The notes below the pieces were generated by a model that searched no databases, was not told the origin of the DNA, and saw only the letters and a list, made by a program, of their open reading frames with translations. Made by a program: the position numbers and the translations under genes. Positions 29,130-32,610 of a stretch of 64,000 nucleotides of DNA are shown piece by piece (position 1 is the first letter of the stretch; the number at the start of each line of letters is the position of its first letter). Source of the DNA: Octopus vulgaris. Taxonomy: Eukaryota. The stretch is taken from assembly GCA_951406725.2 (NCBI GenBank), contig OX597832.1, forward strand, positions 8,928,001-8,992,000, in the 5' to 3' direction.

Positions 29130-29231
29130 TTTTTTACTTATTATATAATGTTTATTCATTTTTTTTGTAGTTCTAATCTACGTTGAGCATAGTGATGGGC
29201 TTGAATTTGTCTATATCGTTCCCCTTGCTAG

Positions 29232-29280
29232 CAAAAACTGTCCGATGAACGGCAACGGGAACTCAGAGTAACAGGTTTTG
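29232..29280 (+). ncRNA. Mutated minimal type I hammerhead ribozyme
   Basis: Paralog of 32532-32581 with CcGATGA and a shortened GAA box. Confidence 0.65.
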
Positions 29281-29454
29281 TTGAATCTTCTGCTGCTTTA
29301 AATAAAGTATCTATCTATCTATCTATCTATCTATCTATCTATCTATCTATCTATCTATCTATCTATCTATCTATCTATCTATCTATCTATATATATATAT
29401 ATATATATATATATATATATATATATATATATATATATATGCATACACACACAA

Positions 29455-30277
29455 ACGTGGTCAGATCAGTAAGTATCAGGCAGCAGAGTTAAAGCATTGA
29501 GGGTAAAGCCGATTGGGACAGAGTGACCGTGAACGCCGCTGTGCATGCGCACTAACGTTTAGCGTTCTAGATCACTTCTGCTTTTTTCCAGCAGTGCTTG
29601 GAATAACGGTTTGTACGTGTGATCTTCGCATTGACCATGACTGGGAAAGATGAGCAGAAAATCTGAATCAAATTTTACCAAAATCTTGGTGACACGTTCT
29701 CGTCACAATTAAGGAGATCCATATGCAACGGAAACCCGAGCCCTTTTTGATTAGCTGAACGCAGTTTGGGGACAAGCGTGGCAGACACGCGTCTTATACC
29801 CAAATCTTCAATGAAGATGGATTGAAGTGAACCGTTCATAATCTGTAAATCTCTTGATAACACACGGATGTTGATTCGACGATTTCTCCTTATAACTGCA
29901 TGCGCATCTGCGATTATTTTCTCACTTCTTGTGGTTGCGGGTGTCCCAGAAGGTTTCTCAATATCGACGTGTTTTCGACTATCATTAAAACGTCTGAACA
30001 ACACGTACACTTGTGTACGGCTCATACAATCTTCCCCATATGTATTCTGCAACTATGCGTTTTTCACTGAGCTGGAATCACCATGATAACTTACTCTGTC
30101 ATAGTCAATTCTTCCTTCCAAGCATGGCTGGAAACAGCGCAAGTGAGTTGGAAAGATAAAACTTGGTGCGCATGTACAGCAGAATACCAGGTCATTCTTT
30201 GCCACTGGATTTCACTCTGCATGTTTTAGCTTCGTTAATATGGCAACAATCCGGAAAATTATTGATCAGACCTCGTA
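29455..30277. mobile_element. Rearranged mariner derivative with two inward-facing 5' ends
   Basis: Both ends read acg(t/a)ggtc(a/t)gatca(g/a)taa. The left arm encodes MTGKDEQKI*IKFYQNLGDT (+). The right arm carries ORF 29675-30052 (-) with the mariner HTH and LVPKL (cf. WVPxxL). Confidence 0.8.
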
Positions 30278-30377
30278 CATACATACATACATACATACAT
30301 ATACGTATACACATGCACACGAACTCACACACCTGCGCACAACAAACAAACTAGCAGAGCACAAAACGGACGACAGA

Positions 30378-30735
30378 CAGTCAACGACTACTGAGGACGT
30401 TGCAAGAAAAACTAAGCAAACGAAATCAAGCGTTGTGTGTGTTAATTAATAAGGACAATGACTCTCCCCAGACAGAATAATATATACTTACATATATACA
30501 TACATATATATATATATGTATATATGCATATATATATATATATATATATATATATATAGATAGATAGATAGATAGATAGATATATATGCATATATACATA
30601 TATATATATGTATGTATATATGTAAGTATATATTATTCTGTCTGGGGAGAGTCATTGTCCTTATTAATTAACACACACAACGGTTGATTTCGTTTGCTTA
30701 GTTTTTCTTGCAACGTCCTCAGTAGTCGTTGACTG
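30378..30735. repeat. Near-perfect inverted repeat (~155-bp arms) of a PLE pseudo-LTR plus flanking microsatellite
   Basis: 30378-~30535 is the reverse complement of ~30580-30735, with one substitution seen in the unique part (tcaagcg vs tcaaccg). Confidence 0.92.
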
Positions 30736-32610
30736 CTGATAATAATGCTGATAGTAATGCTGATAATAATGCTGCACGAAGAACTAGGACCAGGAAAGTT
30801 TTGTGGTTCAACCCGGCTTTCAATTTGGCCGTAAAGACTAATATAGGTAAGGAATTTTTGAGATTAGTTTCTAAGCATTTTAAGCAGGGTCATAAATTCT
30901 ATAGAATATTTAATAGAAGAACCCTGAAGGTTAGCTATTCTTGTTGCAGAAATTTCGCCTCTTACATTAGCCAACATAATAGGAAGCTAATTGAGATTAG
31001 ACATGGTGCCGAGCCCATTAAGAAATGTAATTTCAAAAACGAAAGCTCCTGTCCGTTAGAAGGGAAATGTCTAGTGAAAGGAGTAGTTTATAGAGCCAAG
31101 GTGCAAGTGGAAGGCTAATCGGAATACAAGACATACACAGGGGCTTCAGAAAATTCATTTAAAACAAGATTTTATTCTCATAAAAATTCATTTAAATACC
31201 CAGAGAATAGGAAGAAAACCAGCCTAGCAAAATATGTCTGGGAACTAAAAGAAAAGGAAGCCCCACCTTTCAACGTGACATGGAGCATTCTGGACAGGGC
31301 GGCACCATACAGGCATGGAGCATACAAAAATAATTTCAAGTGAAAGCTTTGACTATTAGAAAAAATGTACATCTTATTCAAAGACAATAATTCTTTGAAT
31401 CAAAGAAGTGAGCTAATGAACTTATGTAGGCACGCGGCTAAATTTAAAATGTCGAATATAAATATACCATATGGATAGAGTATATATTTTGTATTTTTGA
31501 TTTTGATTTTGACTCTTGAACGATGAGCGCTACGATGGATTTTGTTTTTGTTTCCAAACTATGCGGATCTTAATCCGTATAGCAAAGTGTTATGTTTCTA
31601 CATATATATATTAGGAAAAACCTACAAACTTTGTTTTCATGTTATTGTATTGCATAGGATTACCTTGATTATTTATATTACCTTGATTATTTATAAATGA
31701 CCCACAATAGGATGTTATATTTTATTTTATATGTATTTCGTATATATTTTTATTAATGCACCCATTTTTAAAAGCAATGTTTTTTTAAAAAAGCAATGTT
31801 GTCAAAATTAGAACGTTTATATAAGTATGTGTATAGCAAAGCATATGTATTTGTAAGCATGCGTATCTGTGTATGTGTAAGTGAAAGTATGTTTGTGCTT
31901 AAGCACACATATACACGACTGTATGTATATGTATCCATTCAAACTTGTGTATGTATACTGGTCTCTATATATGCCAATAATACCGTTACACTGCTTGTAT
32001 ACATAATTTTCTCTTATTTCGTTTTTTCCCCACCCCTCCTTCGTTCATTTTTCTCTCTCTCCCTTTCTTTCGTTCCCCCTCCTTGCCCAGTATATGAGAA
32101 TTGCTACATAGATGAATTTTAGCTTGCGTGCGAGACGGTTTGCGTGAATATATGTACACATGCTTTTATGTGTATATTTAGATTTATATTCATACGTCTG
32201 TATATGTATGTATGGCGTTTACGCGCATCCTTTTGTGTATGTTGATATATATATGTAGATTTTAATATAAATATGTATTGCAGTATTTATAACAGGTTTA
32301 ATTTCTATGCATTAATTTGCACTGTCTTCATTAACGTCAATAGGTTTTTTCCTCGGATTTTATAATTTTTATAAGTTTTTTATATATATATACATGTATT
32401 TTTGACCTTTTTGTTTATCGCTCGAAGATTGACCGTTTTTTCTAAAGGGCCAATCAAACAAGTCCATTTCTTTTTAAAGGTGTAGCGTTTGTAAGAGTAT
32501 AGATTGAATTGATATATCAGTTCCATTCTAGCAAAAACTGTCTGATGAACGGCAACGAGAAACTCAGAGTAACAGATTTTGTTGAATTTTCTGCTGCTTT
32601 AAATAAAGTA
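30736..32610 (+). mobile_element. 5'-truncated PLE (WFNP/CxC-CPL type, Nematis-like): C-terminal GIY-YIG and 3' UTR/pseudo-LTR
   Basis: One frame to TAG at 31476-31478: RKVLWFNPAF...KVSYSC...CNFKNESSCPLEGKCLVKGVVY...*(TAA 31116)...YTGASENSFKTRFYSHKNSF...TSLAKYVWELK...WSIL...K(TGA)KL(TGA)LLEK...LNQRSELMNLCRH. Confidence 0.9.
32532..32581 (+). ncRNA. Minimal type I hammerhead ribozyme in the PLE 3' terminus
   Basis: caaaaactgt-CTGATGA-acggcaacga-GAAA-ctcagag-TA-acagattttg. Stem I pairs 9 of 10 bp, stem II is short with a GCAA loop (A.A closing mismatch), and the cleavage triplet GUA is at 32569-32571. Confidence 0.8.

Follow-up and report, generated by a model that had tools for sequence, protein, structure and literature searches.

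A predicted hammerhead cassette shared by two Penelope-like element 3' regions in Octopus vulgaris, and its place in a proposed chain of element ends

A 64,000-nucleotide stretch of Octopus vulgaris DNA (GenBank assembly GCA_951406725.2, contig OX597832.1, positions 8,928,001 to 8,992,000 of the forward strand; hereafter the window) carries two copies of a cassette of roughly 110 bases, 3.3 kb apart and in the same orientation, each behind a non-coding 3' region of the type found in Penelope-like elements (PLEs). The cassette resembles a PLE pseudo-long terminal repeat (pseudo-LTR, or pLTR) end with a minimal hammerhead, which is a known type; this particular sequence is absent from the available supplement of PMC8557442. 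We lean towards the view that it natively terminates the 3' pseudo-LTR of an abundant lineage, probably of the Hydra clade, that is present mostly as short truncated copies. The partner with which the Hydra-clade element on the right shares the cassette appears to be a multi-copy non-coding block on the left, here called block C, rather than the Neptune-like remnant that precedes this block. The two cassette copies and the repeats that follow them, the latter called from the letters of the window, are:

29201..29309, forward strand: cassette copy A, with a hammerhead at 29229-29283 whose core is damaged, a terminal hairpin and AATAAA, without a tail
29310..29440, no strand: (TATC)n(TA)n microsatellite directly adjoining cassette copy A
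32504..32610, forward strand: cassette copy B, with a hammerhead at 32529-32584 whose core is intact (predicted cleavage after 32571) and a terminal hairpin with AATAAA, without a tail
32611..32690, no strand: (TA)n microsatellite directly adjoining cassette copy B

BLASTN on the masked window aligned 29212-29307 with 32513-32608 at 89.7% identity over 97 columns (E 2e-28) and returned no third copy in the 64 kb, which confirmed the near-identical repeat of about 100 bp that a preliminary description of this DNA had reported at both sites. Across its 83 columns, the cassette core (29228-29309 and 32528-32610) has 78 identical positions, 4 mismatches and 1 gap. The 27 bases 5' of it (29201-29227 and 32504-32527) are also homologous, given that 0 of 5000 shuffles equalled their score, and are more diverged between the copies than the core itself, with a sharp shift in identity at 29228 (Fisher p about 0.003). 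Further upstream, an anchored extension was matched by 247, 48 and 127 of 500 shuffles, and homology beyond these roughly 27 bases was dropped from consideration, as the extension stayed at shuffle level. The preliminary description was also right that the remaining 3' regions differ: the ~1-kb regions could not be aligned significantly (best local score 29, against a median of 31 and a maximum of 47 in shuffles), save for a weak likeness of their pyrimidine/TG-rich stretches, whose score was reached by 12 of 300 shuffles. The same holds for its statement that the upstream open reading frames (ORFs) differ, as there was no tblastn cross-hit and none of 150 Hydra-type proteins matched the region of copy A.

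As predicted from motif and pairing, the cassette contains a type I hammerhead of the minimal kind, its stem III palindromic, in agreement with the earlier claim of a ribozyme at this place. Copy B has complete cores, with CUGAUGA at 32542-48, GAAAC (GAAA at 32559-62) and a GUA cleavage site at 32569-71. Its stem I forms 12 of 13 pairs, stem II consists of 2 bp with a GCAA loop and an A.A closing pair, and stem III of 3 bp with a palindromic loop; a dimer cofold of the stem III region reached -9.4 kcal/mol. The hammerhead fold of this copy (-6.5) lies above the minimum-energy fold (-11.2), and the folding z-scores of the cassette were ordinary (0.28 to -1.44). The Rfam hammerhead models recognised neither copy, with 0 matches in the window at the gathering score and no hammerhead among the 45 matches at E<=10. 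Because Rfam was silent and the z-scores were unremarkable, the hammerhead call is one of motif plus pairing. In copy A, both cores are damaged, the first reading CCGAUGA and the second missing one A of GAAA.

The abundance and the forms of the cassette were assessed with contigs from four public runs (X1, X3, X5 and X11, carrying four organism labels), which were aligned on 27900-29318 at 80% likeness; statements on variants, indels, joints, loose ends and pieces refer to the listed 40 of 424, 12 of 86, 15 of 53, 24 of 1012 and 32 of 7757, respectively. For the Hydra element, 24 public runs were listed, 20 of which contain part of it. The cassette core reached about 15,000-56,000 times the depth of a single contig, a summed contig depth that is not a copy number, and in all four runs it exceeded block C by a factor of 21-537 and the peak at the end of the Neptune ORF by a factor of 59-246. 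At two positions the contigs side with copy B and not with copy A: an A is restored after 29259 in 64, 51, 42 and 17 contigs of the four runs, and position 29287 is T in >99% of the contig depth. In some contigs, stem II is closed by an A-U pair. Short forms were observed as well: 5, 7 and 4 contigs of X3, X5 and X11 carry a tail behind 29307, 9 contigs of X5 and 4 of X11 have palindromic head-to-head 5' junctions before 29225, and one X1 contig contains a nested partial copy running from 29258 back to 29228. The suggestion of a small, abundant ribozyme end that lands at PLE ends or microsatellites is upheld in part by the depth and these short forms; the end may also simply be the native one of the Hydra family. 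As a separate observation, the consensus of the loose ends before 29260 has the CCGA(C/T)GA form of the first hammerhead core in all four runs, and this U4C variant may therefore be a founder form and not decay.

On the right-hand side, the cassette closes a little-damaged element, referred to as element B, with the following parts:

30378..30735, no strand: nearly perfect 358-base palindrome adjoining the Hydra element at its 5' junction (arms 30378-30556 and 30557-30735)
30774..31478, forward strand: 5'-truncated Hydra-clade PLE ORF with a WFNP region, a CxCX5C linker (one C>F), GIY-YIG, CxxC and CxH
31479..32503, forward strand: 3' non-coding region of the Hydra element, with no other convincing hammerhead

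The ORF is open in a single frame from 30726 to 31475 apart from three stops (one TAA, two TGA). A phmmer search found 9053 relatives at E<=0.001, the best being P0003 (713 aa, 59%, E 2e-86), which carries RWR and DKT, element B itself being 5'-truncated; a relative from Argonauta hians matched at 44%. The motif columns of the Hydra clade hold C in 147, 132, 146, 139 and 138 of up to 150 phmmer matches. Judged by the motifs as defined in section 11 of PMC8557442, this ORF fits the Hydra clade of PLEs: like the Hydra-clade PLEs in the available text of that paper, element B has the WFNP region, the CxCX5C linker and CxxC and CxH around a conserved E and N, together with a C-terminal GIY-YIG. 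It also shares with them the (TA)n target and a hammerhead about 70-100 bases from the end, both present in this one copy. Element B differs from them in its 3' region of about 1.1 kb, which is long, given that most published families measure about 2.1-3.0 kb in total, and in having TGA for both CxxC cysteines.

Scoring of both strands of the window for hammerheads left the cassette as the only convincing hammerhead in element B. This, together with the same stem III in 5 of 25 Hydra families and a module shared among families of Hydra magnipapillata (File S2 of PMC8557442, as far as available), argues that the cassette is native to a Hydra lineage. Hammerheads are called universal in the Hydra clade in the same source, and (TA)n is its reported target. 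Families of one genome share a hammerhead module there too, as 7 of 14 Hydra magnipapillata families have a near-identical hammerhead, two of them with identical flanks. These are Penelope-18_HMa (position 49) and Penelope-1_HM (position 1305), a precedent within the clade for two families bearing one and the same end. A further hammerhead candidate in the Hydra 3' region, at 32423, was rejected since its score of 1.0 equals background, with 78 sites in the window scoring at least 1.

The left-hand side of the cassette is composed differently:

26900..28245 (approximate boundaries), forward strand: Neptune-like PLE ORF remnant with the C-terminal part of the reverse transcriptase, thumb, decayed CX2-5CxxC linker and GIY-YIG
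28427..28459, forward strand: HHR0, a decayed hammerhead, most likely the Neptune element's own, under a depth peak at 28380-28523
28620..28760, no strand: TG-rich then AT-rich stretch, where the Neptune block probably gives way to block C
28764..29200 (approximate), forward strand: block C, a multi-copy non-coding PLE-type 3' region forming a depth plateau
29055..29129, forward strand: HHR1, a second hammerhead with a long stem II, whose GAAA reads AAAA in the window copy

The left ORF shows many stops and frame breaks in three-frame translation, and its decayed motifs (CX2-5CxxC linker, CCHH-type GIY-YIG) match, by eye, the Neptune rows in the available supplement of PMC8557442; it is Neptune-like by motif only, and Nematis may fit too. 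Pfam gave 0 matches for all four pieces of this remnant and 1 sub-threshold match over six pieces overall, a 77-aa piece had no match in the atlas or in a word search, and word-indexed protein searches yielded 1 and 19 candidates, none of them scoring.

The preliminary description had this Neptune-like ORF end in the cassette, a claim that was not confirmed. The remnant appears, most likely, to have a hammerhead of its own: at 28448-28450 of HHR0, about 770 bases upstream of cassette A, most of the depth reads other letters in the four runs, giving a GAAAC-CG-GTC core (36/36/35 contigs in X1, 47/46/40 in X3, 39/36/38 in X5 and 18/17/19 in X11). The stretch around HHR0 is seven substitutions short of a complete minimal hammerhead, three of which are seen in contigs and four inferred. 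Behind HHR0, the total depth at position 28673 equals that of one contig in all four runs (33.8, 41.9, 5.8 and 5.15), and only then does block C follow, with a plateau at 29004-29195 of 40-803 times the single-contig level. Among the listed paralog pieces, the longest diverge by about 17-23% for the Neptune block and by about 6-18% for block C, which shows no similarity to the Hydra 3' region. Block C contains HHR1, which the preliminary description had overlooked and which at 29058 has the second-best hammerhead score of the window on both strands (11.0; the next best is 6.0), a stem II folding at -17.3 kcal/mol and, in one X3 contig, a CTGAAGA variant. The left side thus probably consists of two elements, the Neptune remnant and block C, and the possibility that one of the two associations is a chance nested insertion is in part supported by the position of HHR0 and the one-contig point at 28673.

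By analogy with described PLEs, we infer a course of events in which the cassette would be the extreme 3' end of a very successful PLE lineage related to the right-hand element, with its terminal hairpin near the start of reverse transcription and a minimal hammerhead, if active, of the dimer type. The endonuclease of the element would nick AT-rich or (TA)n DNA, often at older PLE ends, and reverse transcription would frequently halt after about 80-110 bases; the result would be in the order of ten thousand scattered short ends, some with an optional tail and some arranged head-to-head. One such end may have been attached downstream of the hammerhead in the 3' region of a different PLE (block C), and block C with its cassette would lie just downstream of an older Neptune remnant that was already closed by its own hammerhead. 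The window would then represent a chain of PLE 3' ends that arose from successive insertions into targets of one kind, rather than a Neptune family carrying a Hydra end. Solo pLTRs, palindromic pLTR 5' ends and unrelated spacers of 0.9-1.5 kb before a pLTR are described in the available text on Adineta (PMC3846280), and for Poseidon, tail formation and cleavage of AT-rich DNA, its own pLTR included, are reported (PMC11167929). If a native Hydra-lineage end is the right explanation, the window displays ordinary PLE behaviour in an unlisted high-copy family, and warns that adjacency at microsatellites imitates shared ends.

Several observations weigh against this preferred explanation. The commonest upstream continuation of the cassette, a loose end before 29228 seen in 20, 26 and 17 contigs, resembles copy B for about 20 bases and is then unlike both window copies, and because these far-left letters match neither copy, the main carrier of the cassette may be a third family. 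The junction between the Hydra element and the cassette is known from the window copy alone, as the contigs cover the left side. The published Hydra-1_Obim carries a different hammerhead according to File S2 of PMC8557442, and the available part of this file lists no Neptune hammerheads, so that hammerhead style is not diagnostic of the clade. On the left, the four changes in the CUGANGA half and in stems I and II of HHR0 are absent among the listed variants, and the low depth at 28696-28754 is partly an artefact because this stretch was skipped as a repeat in the contig alignment. A contig from X11 tracks block C as far as 29227 and continues with 526 non-fitting letters (probably on this side, given the agreement of other minus-strand records with the loose-end table), which implies that block C does not always run into the core. 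TG-rich tracts occur inside the Hydra 3' region as well, and both non-coding 3' regions are about 1.1 kb long; given these similar lengths and the weakly alike pyrimidine/TG tracts, the Neptune remnant and block C could be one element with an AT-rich middle that cannot be aligned.

This last possibility leads to the exchange of a ribozyme/3'-end module between PLE clades, as proposed in the preliminary description. In that scenario, the Neptune ORF, HHR0, block C, HHR1 and the cassette would form one element, which acquired its Hydra-type end through a template jump or through recombination and subsequently multiplied with it. The multi-copy depth of block C does reach the cassette, none of the listed loose ends lies behind 29150-29210 and there is no site where many contigs stop, one X1 contig spans 29133-29253 with 6 differences and 1 gap, and the 3' regions are of similar length with weakly alike low-complexity tracts. 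However, at a depth of 15.9 this X1 contig may come from the window's own locus, the depth falls to one contig at 28673 in each run, none of the listed joints connects the Neptune block and block C in another copy, and the Neptune block seems to own a hammerhead and has more diverged paralogs. A single element would moreover need three different hammerheads within one 3' region, and pseudo-LTRs are family-specific in Adineta in the available text of PMC3846280. With HHR0, the one-contig point and block C in between, the proposed exchange was not corroborated, and we consider it unlikely. Were a Neptune family nevertheless to carry a Hydra-type end, this would cut against the reported family-by-family pairing of enzyme and pseudo-LTR in Adineta and offer a natural system to probe the roles of end and ribozyme; ribozyme cleavage was dispensable for in vitro insertion in the one reconstituted PLE (PMC11167929). 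A related and still doubtful variant, to which we give slightly more credit, is that a portable hammerhead end of ~110 bases with ~ten thousand copies was grafted behind the native hammerhead of another, possibly Neptune, PLE family, and that the fused end spread. In that event, deep PLE clades could swap their ends, and the hammerhead could act as a PLE parasite, an idea raised in passing by Craig et al. in the available text of PMC8557442.

Alternatively, the cassette could be a stand-alone, non-autonomous mini-element (a solo pLTR or a monomeric retrozyme-like unit) whose preferred 5' boundary lies close to the CTAG at 29228 and which is mobilised in trans and caps block C and the Hydra element secondarily. 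The large depth excess, palindromic junctions centred near 29228, the break in identity between the copies at this position and the X11 contig that leaves block C at 29227 would all be expected, and monomeric PLE-derived retrozyme units are described in the available text of bioRxiv 10.64898/2026.07.22.740005. The boundary is, however, not fixed, because homology covers the 27 bases preceding 29228 and the commonest loose end goes further upstream; the Hydra element would then lack a native hammerhead, the window contains no tandem arrays, and 5' truncation of ordinary copies accounts for the excess equally well. We regard a stand-alone origin of this kind as unlikely. Far less credible still is that local duplication or gene conversion made the two copies alike. 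Their proximity, same orientation and the very young palindrome between them would fit, but the cassette is abundant genome-wide in all four runs, so that two nearby copies need no local cause, and the contigs match copy B and not copy A at 29259 and 29287.

The cassette can further be compared with known systems, in each case within the available text of the sources. With the minimal type I hammerheads of PLE pseudo-LTRs (PMC4209133), it shares the type I topology, a short palindromic helix III that suits dimers, the extra unpaired base beside A9, the location near the PLE 3' end and the many solitary genomic copies, ascribed there to truncated PLEs. It differs in its stem II of just 2-3 bp without the G10.1-C11.1 pair, in its long stem I and in the CCGA core variant of the loose-end consensus. 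The Penelope pLTRs of Adineta vaga (PMC3846280) provide the same solo pLTRs, 5'-end palindromes and optional tail, and likewise one pLTR behind unrelated ~1-kb spacers and mobilisation in trans; there, however, the copy number is low, the spacers are host DNA and the pLTRs are family-specific, whereas the octopus end is very abundant and follows a further multi-copy block that has a hammerhead as well. Animal non-LTR retrozymes (PMC7229834; bioRxiv 10.64898/2026.07.22.740005) are, like the cassette, non-coding, equipped with a type I hammerhead, related to PLE pseudo-LTRs and found as dispersed monomers. They are defined by tandem hammerhead-bearing units, in contrast to the single copies with a polarised 3' end at microsatellites in the window.

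Other collections contributed little. In the available supplement of PMC8557442, six cassette motifs had 0 matches and a seventh, a 9-mer, occurred in 3 unrelated places. One cassette motif gave 2 matches in metagenomes, with bacterial-looking flanks and no cassette around them, and 0 in the viral collection, while a second motif gave 0 matches in GTDB. An 18-base end motif had 35 viral matches, which were discarded as chance given that the longest cassette match over all 37 loci was 42 columns at 79%. The available text of the octopus repeat paper PMC13282606 contains no sequences and no mention of ribozymes, and no report of Neptune-Hydra end sharing was found in the literature searched, which leaves out most subscription papers.

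Within the right-hand element, both CxxC cysteines are encoded by TGA (31341-31343 and 31350-31352, forward strand) in this one copy, so that 2 of its 2 TGA codons fall on these cysteines, in columns that hold C in 139/140 and 138/140 aligned phmmer matches. This raises the possibility of selenocysteine recoding in a Hydra-clade PLE, although chance may explain it; a pattern scan of our own over 31479-32620 found no selenocysteine insertion sequence (SECIS) behind the stop, and section 8 of PMC8557442 reports selenoprotein PLEs in Naiads only. The arms of the palindrome at the 5' junction differ at 1 position in the first 100 unique bases; it could be recent or an assembly fold-back, and dating the Hydra insertion from these arms failed because their unique part differs at just 1 of 100 positions. 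Each arm also carries a hammerhead-like core, at 30391 (forward) and 30722 (reverse), with a weak score of 3.5.

Elsewhere in the window, the best hammerhead score (11.5) was obtained at 60576-60495 on the reverse strand, where an intact type I hammerhead combines a long stem II with a stem III that is palindromic; it is unrelated to the cassette and probably marks another truncated PLE end. At 5560-5637 on the forward strand, a weak hammerhead-like candidate consists of CUGAGGA and then a series of recurring short GC-rich motifs immediately ahead of a (TA)n run. Two self-inverted elements, at 42224-42867 and 33909-34078 (651 and 172 columns, 77-79%), are probably non-autonomous DNA transposons. 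Finally, the two PLE blocks are separated by a reverse-strand segment at 29455-30280, which resembles a Tc1/mariner remnant.

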